From: a virus
Taxonomy: Duplodnaviria; Heunggongvirae; Uroviricota; Caudoviricetes
Direction: 5' to 3' (one strand)
DNA: 27,867 nt
IMG/VR virus record: IMGVR_UViG_2526164662_000053
Every line of letters starts with the position of its first letter. Positions within the stretch are counted from its first letter, which is position 1. Below, piece by piece: positions 14,024 through 25,589 of this stretch. A program made the translations under genes and the position numbers. The notes under the pieces are model-generated. The model worked only from the letters and a program-made list of their open reading frames with translations. It did no database searches and was not told the origin of the DNA.

Positions 14024-14100
14024 TGGCGCGCTGTACTGGATTCGAACCAGTGACCGATTGCTTAGAAGGCAATTGCTCTGTCCGGCTGAGCTAACAACGC
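14024..14100 (-). tRNA. tRNA-Arg (anticodon UCU)
   Basis: Reverse complement folds as cloverleaf: 7-bp acceptor stem GCGTTGT/ACAGCGC, anticodon loop CTTCTAA, T-arm GGTTCGAATCC, 3' CCA. Confidence 0.9.
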
Positions 14101-14201: not shown

Positions 14202-14277
14202 TGGTGGCCCTTGCTGGATTTGAACCAGCGACCTGGCGATTATGAGTCGCTCGCTCTCACCACTGAGCTAAAGGGCC
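14202..14277 (-). tRNA. tRNA with CAU anticodon, ileX/ileZ-like (tRNA-Ile2; reads as Met by anticodon)
   Basis: Perfect 7-bp acceptor stem GGCCCTT/AAGGGCC, anticodon loop CTCATAA, T-arm GGTTCAAATCC, CCA end; close to recalled E. coli ileX. Confidence 0.9.
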
Positions 14278-17054: not shown

Positions 17055-17109
17055 AAGTGCGGGTGCGTTGAGGATGCCTGACACATCAGAGGTGGCGAGG
17101 GATTCTCCC

Positions 17110-18449
17110 CATAAGCGCTAACTTAAGGGTTGAACCATCTGAAGAATGCGACGCCTCGGTGCCTCGTTAAGACGATGCCTCGCGTTCTTCAATTGCGTTT
17201 TGTAGGCTGTCAGGGATACTGTCCCACGAATGGCCACCTGTAAGCTCCAGATGACCATTTTTGTTATTCTCCACAACGAGTTAGTTCTTCTTTTCGGATC
17301 CGGCACTTCTGGGGGGGAAATCCAGCGATGGCTGGATTATGTCGTCAATTAAAAATGCGGCGAGTAGATTAGCAAATATCCACGCTTTCGCGAGTTCAGG
17401 TTCCTTTGCACGCAAAGCATCCAGGTGCAGCAAACTTTTGAGCCGCTTAAAAGCCAGTTCAATTTGCCATCGCAGACGGTAACAATCAGCCACTTGCTCT
17501 GCTGAATATTCATCTTCCGGTAATGATGTTAGCAATAGCACATGGCCCGCTGCTTCCAGCGTTTCCGCCTGAACTACTCGTCCTTTTCGACGATTCTCGC
17601 TGAGCAGTCGGGTTTTACTGATTAATGCTTTTTCGGGAGGAAGTGATACGGCAATGAGACGTGCCGGAAAGGGAGCTCCGGTCTTTTTTATTACCTGAAT
17701 TGCCTATCATTACAGTGGTTTCACCGTTCTTACCGCAATCCAGCCCGCGCAGAAAACCCATCATGTCAAAGCGCATTCCTTCTGCAGTTAACCAGCGCAA
17801 TCCTCGCCAGTGAACCCGGACGATATAATCAGCTTCTCCAAAAGCAAGTGAGCGGATACATTCGGGACGCGAACCGAATCCCCGGTCAGCAATGCGTATC
17901 TCGTCTGCCGTTTGCGCAAATCGGTCCAGCCGTTCAGCGTCTCTGCTGTCGGTTAGCTCAAAATCAGTGAACTGACAGGTATGAGGATCATATCCCATAT
18001 GTAGTCGCCATTCAGCGCTGCCGCCCCCGGGCGCACTGATTGCTGTTCCATCGACAAGACGCAATCTCTTTCCGCTTGTACAACCCGTAACTGCGGCGCG
18101 TACAGCAAGTGTTTGTGCGGCAAGTATGCCAAACCAGTCGGCGGCATTCCGCAGCCGCTTCAGGAGAGCCACGTCAGATAATGTTGCAACGTCATGGAGC
18201 TGAGCCCATGCAGTGACTTCACGTAATGACATCCCCCCGGGGCCGTAAGCCAGCCCCAGACGTAGCAGAGTTGCAGCATCACGAATTTCGCGGCGGCGGG
18301 TTAGAGCCCCGGCATTACGTGCCGAAGTATCCAGTTCTTCGGGCTTACCAATATGGGCCAGAATTGCTGACCAGTTATCGTGAGAGTAATTCATCGGCAC
18401 GTTAAATCATATCAGGCGTAATACCACAACCCTTAAGTTAGCGCTTATG
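17110..18449 (-). mobile_element. IS186 copy 1 (IS4 family)
   Basis: Perfect 23-bp terminal inverted repeats CATAAGCGCTAACTTAAGGGTTG; transposase recognised as IS186 InsL; 1340 bp, flanked by GGGATTCTCCC and GGGATTGCTCCCC. Confidence 0.9.
17281..18400 (-). pseudogene. insL: IS186 transposase, split by one frameshift
   Basis: ORFs 17615..18400 and 17281..17541 together cover the transposase; copy 1 reads ccggtctttttta where copy 2 reads ccggctttttta. Confidence 0.8.
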
Positions 18450-18471
18450 GGGATTGCTCCCCGCACAACGG

Positions 18472-18624
18472 CTACTTCTTCGGTTCGTAAGCGAGAACAG
18501 CCTTAAACTCAATATTACGTTCCTTTACGGTGAACTCACACAGCGAGTCTCCGACCAGAAGCGTAAATCCCAGTACCGTCAAACACAGCACTATTACTGC
18601 CACAAGGGCATATTTCGTCAGCAT
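18472..18624 (-). CDS. hokE: Hok/Gef-family type I toxin, HokE-like
   Basis: 50 aa [50 protein letters not shown], matching recalled HokE; IS186 end lies 22 bp past the stop. Confidence 0.8.
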
Positions 18625-18769
18625 GTTTATATTGCCTCCATGCGAAGAAGGGACTACCATCCGAGTTGTTGAGGCTCGGAGTGGCAGCCCCAGGATTGAT
18701 AGAAATATCTCCTGGGGCTTCATCTTTCCAGACCTCAGAGTTAACCTGAAACCGGAAAGCTTCAGGCAC
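18536..18769 (-). CDS. candidate mok-like overlapping reading frame for hokE
   Basis: 77-codon ORF in a different frame that starts upstream of hok and stops inside it, as in hok/mok/sok loci; no sequence recognition. Confidence 0.35.
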
Positions 18770-18963
18770 CCGCCGTTATCTTACCCTTCCTCAACAAAAT
18801 ATCTGTTTATTTATACAGTGAATCCTGTTTCGGACTTCTGTCGGCAAAACTCATCATTGCTCTTAAAACGAAATCGCCCGCAGCCATCACTGACCGCGGG
18901 CGAAAGTGTAAAGCAGGTGCCTTACCATCCTGACCTGACAACCGGATATGCGGGGATTGCTCC

Positions 18964-20301
18964 CATAAGCGCTAACTTAAGGGTTGAACCATCTGAAGAA
19001 TGCGACGCCTCGGTGCCTCGTTAAGACGATGCCTCGCGTTCTTCAATTGCGTTTTGTAGGCTGTCAGGGATACTGTCCCACGAATGGCCACCTGTAAGCT
19101 CCAGATGACCATTTTTGTTATTCTCCACAACGAGTTAGTTCTTCTTTTCGGATCCGGCACTTCTGGGGGGGAAATCCAGCGATGGCTGGATTATGTCGTC
19201 AATTAAAAATGCGGCGAGTAGATTAGCAAATATCCACGCTTTCGCGAGTTCAGGTTCCTTTGCACGCAAAGCATCCAGGTGCAGCAAACTTTTGAGCCGC
19301 TTAAAAGCCAGTTCAATTTGCCATCGCAGACGGTAACAATCAGCCACTTGCTCTGCTGAATATTCATCTTCCGGTAATGATGTTAGCAATAGCACATGGC
19401 CCGCTGCTTCCAGCGTTTCCGCCTGAACTACTCGTCCTTTTCGACGATTCTCGCTGAGCAGTCGGGTTTTACTGATTAATGCTTTTTCGGGAGGAAGTGA
19501 TACGGCAATGAGACGTGCCGGAAAGGGAGCTCCGGCTTTTTTATTACCTGAATTGCCTATCATTACAGTGGTTTCACCGTTCTTACCGCAATCCAGCCCG
19601 CGCAGAAAACCCATCATGTCAAAGCGCATTCCTTCTGCAGTTAACCAGCGCAATCCTCGCCAGTGAACCCGGACGATATAATCAGCTTCTCCAAAAGCAA
19701 GTGAGCGGATACATTCGGGACGCGAACCGAATCCCCGGTCAGCAATGCGTATCCCGTCTGCCGTTTGCGCAAATCGGTCCAGCCGTTCAGCGTCTCTGCT
19801 GTCGGTTAGCTCAAAATCAGTGAACTGACAGGTATGAGGATCATATCCCATATGTAGTCGCCATTCAGCGCTGCCGCCCCCGGGCGCACTGATTGCTGTT
19901 CCATCGACAAGACGCAATCTCTTTCCGCTTGTACAACCCGTAACTGCGGCGCGTACAGCAAGTGTTTGTGCGGCAAGTATGCCAAACCAGTCGGCGGCAT
20001 TCCGCAGCCGCTTCAGGAGAGCCACGTCAGATAATGTTGCAACGTCATGGAGCTGAGCCCATGCAGTGACTTCACGTAATGACATCCCCCGGGGCCGTAA
20101 GCCAGCCCCAGACGTAGCAGAGTTGCAGCATCACGAATTTCGCGGCGGCGGGTTAGAGCCCCGGCATTACGTGCCGAAGTATCCAGTTCTTCGGGCTTAC
20201 CAATATGGGCCAGAATTGCTGACCAGTTATCGTGAGAGTAATTCATCGGCACGTTAAATCATATCAGGCGTAATACCACAACCCTTAAGTTAGCGCTTAT
20301 G
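18964..20301 (-). mobile_element. IS186 copy 2 (IS4 family)
   Basis: Same 23-bp inverted repeats; 1338 bp; flanked by GGGGATTGCTCC and GGGATTCTCCCCC; same orientation as copy 1. Confidence 0.9.
19135..20252 (-). pseudogene. insL: IS186 transposase, split by one frameshift near the N-terminus
   Basis: ORFs 20013..20252 and 19135..20085; C5 run at 20086-20090 where copy 1 has C6; plus one substitution (ADGIRIA versus ADEIRIA). Confidence 0.8.
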
Positions 20302-20324
20302 GGGATTCTCCCCCGCCTGGTCTC

Positions 20325-20480
20325 TTACTCCTCAGGTTCGTAAGCTGTGAAGACAGCGACCTCCGTCTGGCCGGTTCGGATTCGTACCTCGCAGAGGTCT
20401 TTCCTCGTTACCAGTGCCGTCACTATGACGGTTAAACAGATGACGATCAGGGCGATTAACATCGCCTTTTGCTGCTTCAT
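20325..20480 (-). CDS. hokD: Hok/Gef-family type I toxin, HokD(RelF)-like
   Basis: 51 aa MKQQKAMLIALIVICLTVIVTALVTRKDLCEVRIRTGQTEVAVFTAYEPEE; AAGGAG 9 nt upstream; IS186 end 23 bp past the stop; HokD versus HokC call is from memory. Confidence 0.8.
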   Translation of the reverse strand: MKQQKAMLIALIVICLTVIVTALVTRKDLCEVRIRTGQTEVAVFTAYEPEE

Positions 20481-21147
20481 AGCCTGCTTCTCCTTGCCTT
20501 TCGGCACGTAAGAGGCTAACCTAGATTTGCCGTTCATAGATTGAGCCTCAGATTAATGTTAAGCGTCTTGCAGGACGCGTAATGTTAACTGGGGCTTTTC
20601 TCTATCTGCCTTTGGTGTTCATGCCTGAGACAGATAGCCTCAAGCACCCGCAGCCATTCTACTTAACTCCCGTTACCTCGCCAATATGAAATCAGTCAGA
20701 AAGGCGATCCATAAGAACAACAGCAAGGCAATAAATTGCCATTACAGCAGCAATAGCCAGCGCACATTTGAGAACCAGCACCACAACCTCCTGTATTGGA
20801 CGTACACCAGTCCTGATAAATATGAGGCTGTCTCGTCAGTGATTCAATACAACTATTGGGTATAGTTTCTGTGATTTTGTTCTGTAGAAATGGAACATAA
20901 TAACCTGTCACCACCAGCACTTCTTTAAATACGCCAAGTCCGACGCAAGCTAACCTTCTAGCCCGCTTTGAGCGAAGAACGGACTGAGTAATTCAGGCCG
21001 TTAGCGACACTATGACATCATTAGCAACCAACTAGGAGTTGGTAATAGATGAGTTAATTAATTGATTAAAAACCGACGATTTTACTAGATTACGGGAAGA
21101 AGAAAGGCCGCTGGTACGGCCTCCCAGAGACTAGTCTATTGTTATGC

Positions 21148-21345
21148 TTAGAAACGCTTTTCTATCTCTTTTTCTCTTTCGTTTATTGCATCGTCAATGA
21201 TTTTTTTTGCTGAATTAATTTGTGGTGTTTTTTCTGGTAATACATCTTCAAGATCTTTGGCAATTTTCTTTAATTTATCGATTTCTTTAGTTAAATCAGT
21301 TACAGATTTATCCGCTATTGACTTTGTCATTTTTCCATATTCCAT
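21148..21345 (-). CDS. hypothetical small charged coiled-coil-like protein
   Basis: 65 aa ORF in AT-rich DNA; terminator-like hairpin aggccg…cggcct with U-rich tail just downstream on the minus strand. Confidence 0.35.
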   Translation of the reverse strand: MEYGKMTKSIADKSVTDLTKEIDKLKKIAKDLEDVLPEKTPQINSAKKIIDDAINEREKEIEKRF

Positions 21346-21539
21346 TCAATTTATTTATCAATCAGTTACCCGTAAACCTTATCATGGATTCCAATTATCG
21401 ACAGCTGGGATTTTTACTTTCTTGATCTGCCCCAGGCGAATGACATATCCCCATTAACCAATGTCCGCTCCTAGCACTTAGTAGACATTAATAGATTGTA
21501 AGCGTTCCCGTCATGTAGCGGTCACCGATTGGTGATGAA

Positions 21540-21899
21540 TTGAAGCGGATCATTGATGAAAGTCGCAATAACGTGGCCAGCCCATTTATCGTTCACCAGA
21601 TCCCGGAACGGCAGGTTAAACGCAGCAAAGAAGTTTCTCATCCCACTCAAGTTGCACCAGACTATTTGAGTCGGTCGTTTTCAGCTACGCGTGACAAGCT
21701 GGGTTTATATGACAAACGGCCGATGGATGAAAGGCCAACCTTTCACGAAATTCGCGCCTTAGCAGCACATCTTTTTGATCAGCAGGGCATCGATCCACAA
21801 GGACGAATGGCACACAGCGATGCGAAATCAACTAAAATCTACACGCAAAACCATATCGACTGGGTTGTAGTTCCACATGGAGAAATTAAAGCCAGCTAG
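21540..21899 (+). pseudogene. tyrosine integrase, C-terminal fragment only
   Basis: ERPTFHEIRALAAHL…MAHSDAKSTKIYTQ matches the recalled lambda Int C-terminal catalytic region (R, H, Y present); N-terminal two-thirds absent; frame opens with TTG. Confidence 0.7.
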
Positions 21900-22000
21900 C
21901 ACCAAGTAAGGCATAGAATTTTATTAACCAAGGAGCATATGACCAGTAATTAATTCTTACCGGAAAGTTAGCCCTGCTAAAATTAATATTAACAAATAAA

Positions 22001-22035
22001 AAATAGGGGCAAATATTTATATTTGCCCTCGCAAC
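22001..22035. terminator. bidirectional intrinsic terminator between the integrase fragment and the SLATT gene
   Basis: gggcaaata-ttta-tatttgccc stem with A-run upstream and T-rich tail on the minus strand. Confidence 0.5.
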
Positions 22036-22039
22036 ATAT

Positions 22040-22621
22040 TTATCTTCTTTTCAGTTCCTTGGGAAGAAAAGCATCTATTTCTTCTTCAGAAAATGTTAAA
22101 TCTTCTTTGTTTTTTAATGCGTCCTGTGCTTTTTTATAAGCTTCAAATGTTGTACTAGGAGAGCCTGAATACACTGAATGTAAACTCTCGAGTAACGAAT
22201 CCCGCTCTGACTGCAATTGCTCGATTGGTTTTTCACCCATTGCTAAGTCTGTAAGCAATGATAAATACTTTTCTCGGATTAACCAGATCTCATTTGCAGC
22301 CTGCTTATGTTTTTGCGCCAACTCACCAAGGTCATAATCTTTGGTATAAGCGTTAAGAATGAGAAGCAGTGTTGAAACAACAATCCCAACCCCCGTGCCT
22401 ACTTCACCCGCGCCGAAAAAAGTTGCTAGAAAGCCTCCAGTAGTTAAGGCGGAGAGAATTATTTGCCAAAACTTTATAGAAGATAGTCGAGATAGGAGAA
22501 TGTCTGAGCATTTTTCATGCGTCTTATGTGAGTAAACGACCCGACCATAACACTCTCTGATCTGCCCTTCTAAAACCCTTCTAGATTCAGGTGTATCCTT
22601 AGTCTGGAAATGTTGATCCAT
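22040..22621 (-). CDS. SLATT-like two-helix membrane protein (candidate effector)
   Basis: 193 aa from ATG at 22621 (GGGAGA SD); two adjacent hydrophobic helices FWQIILSALTTGGFLATFF and GVGIVVSTLLLILNAY flanked by charged regions; start lies 23 nt inside the upstream gene. Confidence 0.6.
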   Translation of the reverse strand: MDQHFQTKDTPESRRVLEGQIRECYGRVVYSHKTHEKCSDILLSRLSSIKFWQIILSALTTGGFLATFFGAGEVGTGVGIVVSTLLLILNAYTKDYDLGELAQKHKQAANEIWLIREKYLSLLTDLAMGEKPIEQLQSERDSLLESLHSVYSGSPSTTFEAYKKAQDALKNKEDLTFSEEEIDAFLPKELKRR

Positions 22622-23480
22622 AAATCTCCCGCCATTTTTGCTTAGCCGACCATTCGCGTTTTGGGGTCGCCATTTCATGCTCTATAGCTTCGAGTGAAAT
22701 GTTATAGCACCGTTTTGCTTTATATTGGAAAAGCCCTTTACCATAGACATACTGACCACTTCCTGGCGCTTTCCAATACTCCTTACTCGTATCTTGATCA
22801 GCCATCCATTTGAAGAAATCACGACTCATGAAATCGTAGTAAAGATACGACTTATCTCTATGCGCCCAATTTTCAATGAATTGATACGCAAGCGTATCAA
22901 TGAGTAAACCACTTATAGGTACATCCCATTTACGCTTCCAAGCTCTTGCCATTCTACAAAGTTGCACCAAATTGTTATTGGTAATGTTATTTCTTAACCT
23001 CATTGCAGAAATTTCTGGCTTTGGATTTGTAATCCTCCAACGGCCACCACCGTTCGCATCAGGAAATGTGTAACTATCACTAACATTGAGGAAAGCTGGA
23101 ACGACTTCAAATGTAATTCCATCATTGAACGGTACAAGGATCACTTGACCGTCACCTCTAATACTAGTGGTAGCATAGGTTTTTTCAATAGATCTCTTAA
23201 CCGCTTGAAGCAATGCTGACTGCCCATTTCCTAAGTAGCTATTGTATTTTTGATACTCGGAATATGGTAGCTGAAAAATCATATCCAGATCGCTCAAGCC
23301 TTGCGTAGCTGTGTTCCGACCATATGATCCAACGTAGAGACTATGAGAAGTATCAGAACTGCTATCCCAAAAATCCGTATTTAAACGCTTCGTTATATTC
23401 CTATATCTAGTTGAAATTGTTCCACCATCTTTTACAGTAAGATTGGAGCAAAATCCGCAAAACCACTCAGCTAAACCCAT
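22599..23480 (-). CDS. SMODS / CD-NTase-like nucleotidyltransferase (candidate signal synthase)
   Basis: 293 aa from ATG at 23480 (AAGGA SD); motif VGSYGRNTATQGLSDLDMIF (GS…DxD) and downstream acidic motif NDGITFEVVPA. Confidence 0.65.
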   Translation of the reverse strand: MGLAEWFCGFCSNLTVKDGGTISTRYRNITKRLNTDFWDSSSDTSHSLYVGSYGRNTATQGLSDLDMIFQLPYSEYQKYNSYLGNGQSALLQAVKRSIEKTYATTSIRGDGQVILVPFNDGITFEVVPAFLNVSDSYTFPDANGGGRWRITNPKPEISAMRLRNNITNNNLVQLCRMARAWKRKWDVPISGLLIDTLAYQFIENWAHRDKSYLYYDFMSRDFFKWMADQDTSKEYWKAPGSGQYVYGKGLFQYKAKRCYNISLEAIEHEMATPKREWSAKQKWREIYGSTFPD

Positions 23481-23775
23481 GCTCAATTCCTTTTCTAAAA
23501 TCTAATGAAAAATTCAAGGGCGCATGTTCCATGCATCATTGATAACTTTTTTCAGTCAGCTAGAGCAACATAATTGATACTAACTAGCTGTTTCTTCAAG
23601 TGAGTAACCTACTTTAGCATCAAGGTATTATACCTACCAAGCATGGGGAGAAACCACCACTTAAGCCATTGAAGTATATAGAGCAGATTTTGTTGAAAAA
23701 GCACTGTTTGTCTATACATATGAATATGTGCTTTTAACCAGCAATAGCGCGGCTCTCAGCGTTTTACAAGCAGTG

Positions 23776-23822
23776 TCATGGGGTGTCGGGGATCGGAAGT
23801 TCAAATCCTCTCGTGCGACCCA
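23776..23822 (+). other. 3' fragment of a tRNA-Pro-like gene (anticodon loop to 3' end); attachment-site remnant
   Basis: tcatggggtgtcggggatcggaagttcaaatcctctcgtgcgaccca resembles the 3' part of recalled E. coli proM; no matching 5' half upstream. Confidence 0.6.
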
Positions 23823-23834
23823 AAAGATTATATA

Positions 23835-23860
23835 AACCAGCCTGTTATTGCTGGTTTTTT
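23835..23860 (+). terminator. intrinsic terminator after the tRNA-Pro fragment
   Basis: accagc-ctgttatt-gctggt followed by TTTTTT. Confidence 0.5.
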
Positions 23861-24049
23861 ATGCCTACCTTCCTGGTAGGGAAGCTATGGGGAATTACTG
23901 GGGAATCCCCCCCCTTTACCTGCTCCCATTAAACTAACATAGCACGATGTAAGCAACTTCCGCTTCTGGCACAAAGCGGACAACCACGCTAGCTCTACCC
24001 TGTGCCACAAAATGTCAATTTACATCTGAACTAATGCACTTTAATCTCG

Positions 24050-24472
24050 TCACTTCAAAAAATACCGAACATCCCCCTGATAAAACGACAATATCCACTG
24101 CATAACTTCGCTTTTACGACACTCAGTACAAATTATATTATGACGCCTGTCGTAACGACGTATTTCTCCATCAGGTAATGACCAGATAAGGTCCGGATCA
24201 ACCGCAGATGGTTTCTTCAGCTTTGCCCTTGAGAGCTTTTTACGGGCATTTTGCCAGTCCTTACGCGCCTGTTCAGACGGGAATAACCCGTAACCAGAGT
24301 TGTATACATCGCCACTGGCAACCAGCTCTCTGGCCAGAACGCTCATCAGATATCTTGTTGCCCCAGTTTTAGCTTCCAGTTGTCGTAACGTCTCGCGCCC
24401 ACTCTGGCGTACGAGTTCAAGAACCTGCCCTTTAATTTTTTCCCGCTCTTCTTGTGTAAAAACTTTTGCCAC
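24050..24472 (-). CDS. hypothetical protein with HTH-like segment (lambda P position)
   Basis: 140 aa ORF downstream of the O-like gene; function not recognised. Confidence 0.4.
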   Translation of the reverse strand: MAKVFTQEEREKIKGQVLELVRQSGRETLRQLEAKTGATRYLMSVLARELVASGDVYNSGYGLFPSEQARKDWQNARKKLSRAKLKKPSAVDPDLIWSLPDGEIRRYDRRHNIICTECRKSEVMQWILSFYQGDVRYFLK

Positions 24473-24512
24473 AAGCCCTCCTGAAAATTACCTCATGACC
24501 AGAAATACACAC

Positions 24513-25589
24513 TTACCCCCTGAAGCCCGGTGGAATTTCGGTATCCGGTTCAGAAATATGATTCACACAACGCTGGTTGTTCGTACCGCTTACCGGGAGC
24601 AACCAGGGGTTTTCAAAATTCCGGTCCGGTCCAAAAAACGTCGTCGCTCGCTGAACAAATTCCGTTCCCGTTTTCCCGGTAGCCGCCAGGTATCTTGCGT
24701 AACGCCTCACACCATCCAGCATGGTCTCTGGTGGCACCCCCTCGCGTAATCTGGCCTTCCAGGCACTGAAAGCGGATTTCTTCGGGTTTGCCCCAGCACG
24801 CAACGGGTATTCCCGCCAGACCTGTTCGAACACATCCGGATAATCTACTCGCCCCACAGGCTGCCCGGTGTTTTCCGGGACTACCCGATCGGCTTCCCGC
24901 TGAATGGCGGAATCGGCTTCAGGCTGCTGCAGTTGGTGTGATTGCTCCGGCCTTGCGGTCATCACCTGCTGCACAGCGCCCGAATCGGCTTTCAGCGCAT
25001 ACGCTGAATCGGCTTCCGGTGTCGTGCCTGCTGGCTGACCAGGATTGACGGTCTGAACATCCCCTGCCTGGTTCGTGGCGTTTTTTACGCCATGGACCAT
25101 AGTGTTTTGATCTTCTTGATCTGTATCTTTATCTGTATCTTTATCTGTCGTGACTCGTCGTGACATGTGCGTGACATTTCGTGACGCGCCGTGACAATCG
25201 CCATTTTGTTCCCGCTTTCTTTCCCTCTCTCGCTGCGCCCTCTTGCGCTCTGCAGGAGATTTTGCGGTTTGCGAAATATTGCCGTTGTCCTCTTTAAGCA
25301 CCTGGCGTTTTTCCCATCCAGTGATTAAATCACCATCAAGTACCCGCCCCTGCATCGTCTGCAAAATTGAATCAATTACCTCTTCTGTCACGTCGAGCGC
25401 ACTTGCCAAATCTTCTGTCGTGACATCAATGTGACCTCGCGTGACATTTCGTGACGCGCTCACCAGGAGGTGGATATACACTGCCATCACTGTTGCAATT
25501 GGCTGCCCTGACACCCTGGCAATTGTTCGCCACTTAGGGTCATTTGGCATGTCATGCCATAATCTGAGCCAAGCGTTAGCCATACTCAC
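24513..25589 (-). CDS. putative replication initiation protein (O-like)
   Basis: 358 aa; position after cro and a cII-position gene; iteron-like repeats inside its coding sequence as in lambda O; protein similarity itself is weak. Confidence 0.5.
   Translation of the reverse strand: MSMANAWLRLWHDMPNDPKWRTIARVSGQPIATVMAVYIHLLVSASRNVTRGHIDVTTEDLASALDVTEEVIDSILQTMQGRVLDGDLITGWEKRQVLKEDNGNISQTAKSPAERKRAQRERERKREQNGDCHGASRNVTHMSRRVTTDKDTDKDTDQEDQNTMVHGVKNATNQAGDVQTVNPGQPAGTTPEADSAYALKADSGAVQQVMTARPEQSHQLQQPEADSAIQREADRVVPENTGQPVGRVDYPDVFEQVWREYPLRAGANPKKSAFSAWKARLREGVPPETMLDGVRRYARYLAATGKTGTEFVQRATTFFGPDRNFENPWLLPVSGTNNQRCVNHISEPDTEIPPGFRG
25145..25200. repeat. iteron cluster 1: five direct CGTGAC(A) repeats at 10-11 bp spacing, next to an AT-rich repeat
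   Basis: CGTGAC at 25149, 25159, 25170, 25180, 25190; preceded by atctgtatctttatctgtatcttt (about 25120-25145). Confidence 0.55.
25386..25456. repeat. iteron cluster 2: four direct (C/T)GTGAC repeats plus one inverted copy
   Basis: GTGAC at about 25419, 25431, 25440, 25450 at 10-11 bp spacing; inverted gtcacg at 25387-25392. Confidence 0.5.

Follow-up and report, generated by a model that had tools for sequence, protein, structure and literature searches.

The 27,867-nucleotide window analyzed here (the whole stretch of DNA in IMG/VR virus record IMGVR_UViG_2526164662_000053, class Caudoviricetes) carries two overlapping genes on its minus strand, one encoding a cyclase of the CD-NTase/SMODS family and the other a SLATT_4 membrane protein. 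This pair is very probably a Type I cyclic oligonucleotide-based anti-phage signaling system (CBASS) operon that a lambdoid E. coli prophage bears as cargo. Its kind is already catalogued; the pair is an unremarkable member of it and not a new system, and its products have SMODS and SLATT names in RefSeq. A preliminary description, made from the letters of the DNA alone, had proposed an overlapping two-gene, CBASS-type candidate abortive-infection module here, and the PADLOC Cyclase and 2TM Effector profiles support that proposal. The operon consists of the following features:

22599..23480, minus strand: CD-NTase/SMODS cyclase gene, 293 amino acids (aa), with its ATG at 23480 and a TAA ending at 22599 (RefSeq WP_000521772.1)
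22040..22621, minus strand: SLATT_4 two-transmembrane effector gene, 193 aa, with its ATG at 22621 (RefSeq WP_000371964.1)
22599..22630, minus strand: overlap junction of cyclase and effector, read from the sequence, where the effector Shine-Dalgarno sequence and ATG lie within the last cyclase codons

As had been predicted, the cyclase open reading frame (ORF) contains a GS…DxD signature (VGSYGRNTATQGLSDLDMIF at residues 50-69), and the effector ATG lies behind GGGAGA and 23 nucleotides (nt) inside the first gene; both were confirmed on the minus strand. The GGGAGA Shine-Dalgarno sequence occupies 22630-22625, three bases before the ATG. Because these effector start signals are located in the 3' end of the cyclase gene, the 23-nt overlap implies that translation of the two genes is coupled. 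Both the junction sequence and the overlap are identical in L002-L005, which are loci in other Enterobacteriaceae prophages with a nucleotide identity of 78%, and the overlap is also retained in L006, which is a distant metagenomic contig with 78% amino acid identity in the cyclase.

The coordinates of both genes match the RefSeq annotation in a strain with a 99.9% identical copy. Longer ORFs, starting at TTG 23486 and at ATG 22678, were rejected in favor of the shorter starts supported by family profiles, homolog alignments and RefSeq: the PADLOC models align over positions 1-292/293 for the cyclase and 3-185/189 for the effector, and the homologs start alike.

To identify the products of the two genes we compared them with family profiles, as the preliminary description had proposed. 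The cyclase matched Pfam SMODS (PF18144) with E=2.1e-50 and 171.6 bits (cut-off 26.5) over the entire profile (1-164/164), and it matched the PADLOC CBASS Cyclase model PDLC00786 with E=4.6e-144 over 1-292/293. The earlier SMODS/CD-NTase call was therefore borne out by two full-length profile matches. According to PMC8565338, the PADLOC CBASS models derive from clustered proteins of the CBASS loci in the catalogue of Millman et al. 2020; since the match to PDLC00786 is full-length, the cyclase falls inside that catalogue. The effector, which had been called SLATT-like, matched Pfam SLATT_4 (PF18186) with E=4.4e-74 and 248.1 bits (cut-off 27) over positions 1-165/165, NCBIfam SLATT_4 (NF033632) with 150.7 bits (cut-off 55), and the PADLOC 2TM Effector model PDLC00696 with E=9.9e-85. 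Its match to the SLATT_5 profile was weak (E=0.02). With profile E-values of 2e-50, 4e-74, 5e-144 and 1e-84, chance is ruled out for both identities.

The catalytic residues of the cyclase are G51-S52, D64-x-D66 and E125, and all five are invariant among 27 homologs. G51-S52 and D64-x-D66 align with the GS and DxD of the Pseudomonas aeruginosa enzyme PaCdnD, and E125 aligns with the third catalytic Asp of PaCdnD; the third acidic catalytic residue of the window cyclase is thus a Glu and not an Asp. Judged by these alignments, the Pol-beta active site of the cyclase is intact.

Structural comparisons of the cyclase returned CD-NTases foremost. Among solved structures, that of P. aeruginosa CdnD (6p8u) was nearest by sequence; its E-value was 6.7e-9 in a single-sequence search and 3.3e-12 when a profile was used. 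The next solved relative was the CdnD 9ntn, and only CD-NTases were found in this search. The AlphaFold model of the cyclase was poor, with a predicted local distance difference test score (pLDDT) of 57, because the 27-sequence alignment was shallow and at least 78% identical throughout. When this model was compared with the PDB using Foldseek, the top 18 matches were all bacterial CD-NTases (CdnC, CdnE, CdnD, CdnG, DncV, and CdnB), followed by cGAS. The TM-scores were ~0.3, which is unusable quantitatively, so that only the ranking is informative. Structure prediction, which had been put forward as a check on both proteins, thus supported the cyclase assignment but gave no specific PDB match for the effector.

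The solved sequences closest to the cyclase belong to clade D. On the other hand, several relatives at 43-49% identity (P0252, P0256, P0263, P0275, and P0281) bear a C-terminal AGS-C domain (PF18134). The window cyclase is without AGS-C, and its family therefore straddles the boundary between presence and absence of this domain that is seen in some CD-NTase clades. Clades A, C, D, and E lack AGS-C, and its distribution in clades F and G is patchy (bioRxiv 10.1101/2023.05.21.541620). The occurrence of AGS-C in relatives at 45-49% identity suggests that the window cyclase may belong to clade F or G, although its closest solved structures are of clade D.

The effector is laid out as an N-terminal cytoplasmic helix, a transmembrane hairpin at ~51-92 and a C-terminal helical domain of ~100 aa. 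Its hydrophobic segments, at ~51-69 and 71-92, are separated by a GAGEVG turn and have charged regions on both sides. Kyte-Doolittle 19-residue windows above 1.4 cover residues 51-93 in two blocks, and the AlphaFold model (pLDDT 71) is all-helical, with helices at 11-60, 62-69 and 73-95. These results agree with the two adjacent hydrophobic helices with charged flanks that had been described before. By sequence and profile search, matches of the effector to the PDB were at chance level only. On either side of the hairpin, residues 26-47 and 90-122 are strikingly invariant, with one conserved motif each (GRVVYSHKxHEKC...DILL and NAYTKxYDLGELAQKHKQ). This conservation makes both stretches obvious candidates for the binding of a ligand or partner. 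How SLATT proteins detect their signal has been called “a central open question” in a 2026 study of one RT-SLATT system (bioRxiv 10.64898/2026.04.29.721553).

For assignment to a CBASS type, we followed the classification of Millman et al. 2020 as implemented in PADLOC. The operon has a cyclase of the CD-NTase/SMODS family (SMODS and PDLC00786), intact Pol-beta residues (G-S, D-x-D, and the third acidic residue), and an adjacent effector of a recognized class (PADLOC 2TM, SLATT_4) whose gene overlaps that of the cyclase, and it is accompanied by none of the ancillary sets Cap2/Cap3 (E1/E2/JAB), HORMA/TRIP13 or QueC/TGT/OGG. These sets characterize Type II, Type III, and Type IV CBASS, respectively. 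Within 20 kb of the operon in both directions, RefSeq annotates only phage, insertion sequence (IS) and hok genes and no ancillary CBASS gene, and PADLOC found no CBASS match among ten neighboring ORFs. The nearest ~8 kb are free of ancillary Cap genes. The lack of a Cap-type gene had been noticed correctly; however, the layout had been described as minimal rather than canonical, and this does not hold. A cyclase plus an effector without ancillary genes is the definition of Type I, so the layout is canonical and not exceptional. Likewise, the effector has the features of a SLATT_4 protein: a full-length domain, two transmembrane helices with helical flanks, and an association with SMODS both here and in L002-L006.

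Systems of this type are well documented. Type I CBASS is among the most widespread defense types (PMC8565338), and SLATT4 has been named among the abundant CBASS membrane effectors (PMC12480259). In more than 80% of 2,376 Type I operons analyzed, the cyclase was of clade D, E or F and its effector had two or four transmembrane segments, and the same study showed that two-gene Type I CBASS is sufficient for defense (bioRxiv 10.1101/2023.05.21.541620). A literature search on this operon and on WP_000521772/WP_000371964 found no phage-challenge data.

The pair is well conserved and widely distributed. It occurs at ≥99% identity in 47 of 5,426 complete E. coli genomes, always on the chromosome, and a 48th genome has a more distant, partial match. 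The exact cyclase and effector proteins are present on more than 1,000 contigs, and relatives of the pair number in the thousands. In L002-L005 the cyclase is 86% identical and has the same SLATT_4 partner, the pair is also retained in L006, and Microcystis and Enterococcus have plasmids that bear more distant nucleotidyltransferase-SLATT pairs. In a comparison of the window with L002, the ratio of nonsynonymous to synonymous substitution rates (dN/dS) was 0.06 in the cyclase gene and 0.03 in the effector gene, with synonymous sites near saturation. Read from these substitution patterns, both genes are under strong purifying selection.

Homologs were also found in metagenome-assembled genomes labelled Brocadiaceae, Ignavibacteria, Sphingopyxis, Thalassolituus, and Vicingaceae, at 78-81% identity for the cyclase and 82-83% for the SLATT protein. 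Such high identity across taxa implies recent and frequent horizontal transfer, or very tight constraint, or both. A megablast search of a phage collection (50,697 records) gave no match to the pair, and tblastn against the same collection matched only the Listeria phages OR846759.1 and OR848108.1, with 44% identity to cyclase residues 21-209. Both of these genomes are unannotated. Since these distant matches are the only two, the pair is not a feature of the sequenced isolates in this collection, although genomes carry it in prophages.

The window is co-linear with a lambdoid prophage of E. coli 2013C-4991 (97-99.9% identity). Within it, the operon is located between the replication and immunity genes (DUF977, an O-like protein, YdaT, Cro, and CI) on one side and hok/sok, IS and the nin/Q region on the other. 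One edge of the imported segment is marked by a further feature:

21540..21899, plus strand: remnant of an integrase gene (only its final ~122 codons), oriented convergently to the effector gene

This remnant has a weak match to Pfam Phage_integrase and is annotated in RefSeq as “recombinase, frameshifted; incomplete”. It is 86.6% identical (blastp, 119 aa) or 88.5% identical (tblastn, 122 aa) to the C-terminus (~269-392) of the integrase found in L002-L005. There the integrase is intact (392 aa) and adjoins the same gene pair at the end of a different prophage (L002 7533-8711). The 78% nucleotide homology with L002-L005 runs from inside the integrase across both genes to just 5' of the cyclase, and it resumes at 23641-23860. 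The remnant corresponds to the 3' end of the integrase gene that adjoins the pair in those loci, which means that the cassette took a piece of its neighbor along when it moved. Going by these alignments, its normal place is the integrase-proximal cargo position, and here it is imported, along with the broken integrase piece, into the middle of another prophage. The import also explains the low GC content of the operon (0.40 across 22040-23480 versus 0.49 for the whole window); that the pair is AT-rich and unlike its surroundings had been seen from the outset.

Two non-coding features flank the operon:

22000..22028, minus strand: intrinsic terminator with a 9-bp stem (GGGCAAAUA / UAUUUGCCC) followed by a U-run
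23481..24049, minus strand: upstream non-coding region of 569 nt without a convincing ORF, presumed to be the promoter and regulatory region of the operon

In a terminator scan, the GC-clamped hairpin at 22028..22007 started 11 nt past the effector stop codon. Its RNA fold has an energy of -16.1 kcal/mol (z = -4.71), and none of 200 shuffled sequences folded as well. A terminator had been placed at 22001-22035 beforehand, and the hairpin with its T-run is located there. The operon had also been credited with an upstream region of its own; this stands insofar as 569 nt lack a convincing ORF, but no promoter was found above chance.

When 20000-25000 was scanned with Rfam, neither the operon nor its upstream region matched an RNA family. 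A TATAAT hexamer without mismatch (23632-23627, minus strand) was not called a promoter, as inspection by eye found neither an acceptable -35 element nor a TG extension. The ~220 nt of non-coding DNA at 23641-23860 share 73-76% identity with the DNA preceding the cyclase gene in L002-L005, and the stretch between them and the cyclase start codon is not alignable with those loci. On the basis of this similarity, 23641-23860 may be a regulatory element.

By analogy with related CBASS operons, the pair would act as follows. In the uninfected lysogen the cyclase would be idle, and a cue from late phage infection would switch it on; in Type I CBASS, escape mutants of phages are altered in capsid, prohead-protease and scaffold proteins. 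Once active, the cyclase would condense nucleoside triphosphates (NTPs) into a cyclic di- or tri-nucleotide, which the highly conserved cytoplasmic helices of SLATT_4 would recognize. The two-transmembrane hairpins would then oligomerize and permeabilize or depolarize the inner membrane. Cell death would precede completion of the phage (abortive infection), and sibling lysogens and the prophage would be protected. The activation of SLATT_4 and the formation of a pore constitute the weakest link of this mechanism.

Several observations weigh against the CBASS reading. That reading draws on sequence and on analogy with related operons. With 116.9 bits, the cyclase is under the 200-bit cut-off of the NCBIfam equivalog model CBASS_cyclase_b (NF041117), which is why the name given by the Prokaryotic Genome Annotation Pipeline (PGAP) and RefSeq is only “SMODS domain-containing nucleotidyltransferase”. 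Family profiles recognized no nucleotide-binding domain (SAVED, STING or similar) in the effector, and in structure comparison its model matched no solved structure specifically; ligand recognition and pore formation are for these reasons assumed. The effector is SLATT_4 (PF18186), unlike the SLATT6 proteins carried by the E. coli SLATT operons tested with EcCdnF04 and EcCdnF05. A promoter consensus scan found 8 sites versus 8.0 expected by chance and identified no promoter. Finally, the host prophage is decayed, with IS elements and frameshifted integrases, and expression of the operon in this context is therefore not guaranteed.

One possibility is that the cyclase and SLATT_4 form a stable membrane complex in which the pore is gated directly or by the product in cis, a mechanistic variant of CBASS. 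An exhaustive search found 1,552 relatives of the cyclase among 1.84 billion cluster representatives, including single-chain SMODS-SLATT_4 fusions (P0280, P0284, P0286, and, by its sequence, P0288) of 489-508 aa at 38-40% identity. These fusions fall into several independent 50%-identity clusters and have their transmembrane hairpin at ~320-375. Most keep acidic residues at the catalytic positions; in P0280, K and E replace the DxD aspartates, and going by such substitutions some of the fusions may be catalytically altered. The existence of single-chain fusions is classical evidence that the cyclase and SLATT_4 work together. A complex is further favored by the conserved 23-nt overlap and junction, which imply coupled and stoichiometric translation, and by the lack of a known ligand-sensor domain in SLATT_4. 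However, fusions indicate functional linkage and not a stable complex in the unfused systems. In addition, the free exchange of effectors among related Type I cyclases is consistent with a diffusible ligand (bioRxiv 10.1101/2023.05.21.541620). We consider a stable complex unlikely, with perhaps an outside chance of being correct.

It could be speculated further that SLATT_4 is a new cyclic-nucleotide receptor and pore within such a complex, with its invariant helices as a docking site for the ligand or the cyclase, unmatched among solved structures, and with signaling that is local to the membrane instead of relying on a freely diffusing second messenger. The fusions and the conserved translational coupling point in this direction, and we give this more specific proposal the same small chance. 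If it is true, the activation of SLATT effectors could conveniently be studied in the E. coli pair.

Another possibility is that the cassette, having arrived with a broken integrase, is an inactive relic that is no longer expressed or functional in a decayed prophage. This would fit the truncation of the adjacent integrase to ~122 codons, the IS copies and frameshifted genes of the surrounding prophage, and the promoter scan that identified none. On the other hand, neither ORF is disrupted, and more than 1,000 contigs encode identical proteins; the dN/dS values are 0.03-0.06; no damage is seen in the catalytic residues, the ribosome-binding sites or the terminator; and the 47 E. coli genomes retain the pair at ≥99% identity. 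A relic is quite improbable.

Least probable of all, and barely worth entertaining, is a nucleotidyltransferase without a signaling role, either a modifier of macromolecules (MenT/AbiEii type) or an antitoxin-like regulator of a constitutively toxic SLATT protein in a prophage addiction module: Pol-beta-fold nucleotidyltransferases do include protein- and RNA-modifying toxins, the cyclase has a weak match to Pfam NTP_transf_2 that indicates the generic fold only, and the region also bears hok/sok addiction modules, but the SMODS and CBASS cyclase profiles match full-length with E down to 1e-144, CD-NTases are the only solved relatives that comparison of sequence or fold brought up, and Pfam, NCBIfam, and PADLOC report no similarity to MenT or AbiEii.

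Other features were noted in the surrounding prophage. A hokD-type Hok/Gef toxin gene lies at 20325-20649 (minus strand; Pfam HOK_GEF, E=3e-23), ~1.4 kb from the operon, and the same locus has a sok antisense RNA (Rfam RF01794, 110 bits, gathering score 59), making it a type I toxin-antitoxin system. An IS4-like IS421 region is present as a tandem direct duplication (17099-18464 and 18953-20316) whose copies are 99-100% identical at a spacing of ~1,853 nt. The region is single-copy in the reference strain, and the ~488-nt spacer (18465-18952), which encodes a second Hok-like peptide on its minus strand, is absent from the reference locus. The duplication could be a real IS-mediated rearrangement or a feature of the assembly. 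Downstream of the Q antiterminator, on the minus strand, are a tRNA-Arg (tct) at 14024-14100 and a CAT-anticodon tRNA at 14202-14277, the latter assigned to Met by ARAGORN and to Ile by RefSeq.

The discovery value of the Type I CBASS assignment is small: PADLOC or RefSeq domain naming already labels the pair, and its class is common and experimentally validated. It is of use for annotation, as the defense cargo of this prophage may shape the phage susceptibility of the strain. The questions it raises are those of the SLATT and Type I field as a whole, namely which nucleotide is made, which phage cue is perceived without a sensor partner, and how a helical protein of 193 aa breaches the membrane. 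Being short, native to E. coli and extremely conserved (≥78% identity across phyla), the pair would make a practical model for SLATT activation.

Among known systems, EcCdnF04-SLATT6 and EcCdnF05-SLATT6 of E. coli protect at least 10,000-fold against phages from five families (Richmond-Buccola et al., bioRxiv 10.1101/2023.05.21.541620). The window operon resembles them in its order, a CD-NTase followed by a two-transmembrane SLATT effector in E. coli, and in having no Cap2/Cap3, HORMA/TRIP13 or other ancillary genes. A cyclase without AGS-C whose near relatives have AGS-C is a further likeness. A published Type I CBASS from a lactococcal plasmid (pUCCL631_167/168; PMC11381338) has an effector of family PF18186. 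As in the window, its SLATT_4 effector (190 aa) adjoins a CD-NTase; in contrast, its cyclase is 408 aa long with a C-terminal AGS-C and has CdnB (7LJO) as its best structural match, compared with 293 aa and no AGS-C here, and it is plasmid-borne in a Gram-positive host and not prophage-borne in E. coli.

Three more distant comparisons are instructive. PaCdnD (6p8u/6p82/6p8j) shares with the window cyclase the CD-NTase fold and the GS...DxD...acidic triad, in an alignment over residues 27-292, but the relationship is distant. The PaCdnD system is a Type III CBASS with HORMA/TRIP13 regulation and a nuclease effector. No genes of these PaCdnD-type kinds are present at the window operon. Like Cap15 and other transmembrane effectors, the SLATT_4 protein would be a nucleotide-activated small membrane protein that disrupts the inner membrane and kills the cell. 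Cap15 has a soluble beta-barrel domain that binds its ligand. SLATT_4, in contrast, is predicted to be all-helical and is without a recognizable sensor domain. Lastly, DRT10/UG17 (SLATT_5) and DRT3 use effectors of the same superfamily, and there too the SLATT gene is coupled to or overlaps an upstream polymerase-type gene; unlike in the window operon, however, the partner is a reverse transcriptase with a non-coding RNA, and the activator is proposed to be cDNA and not a cyclic nucleotide.

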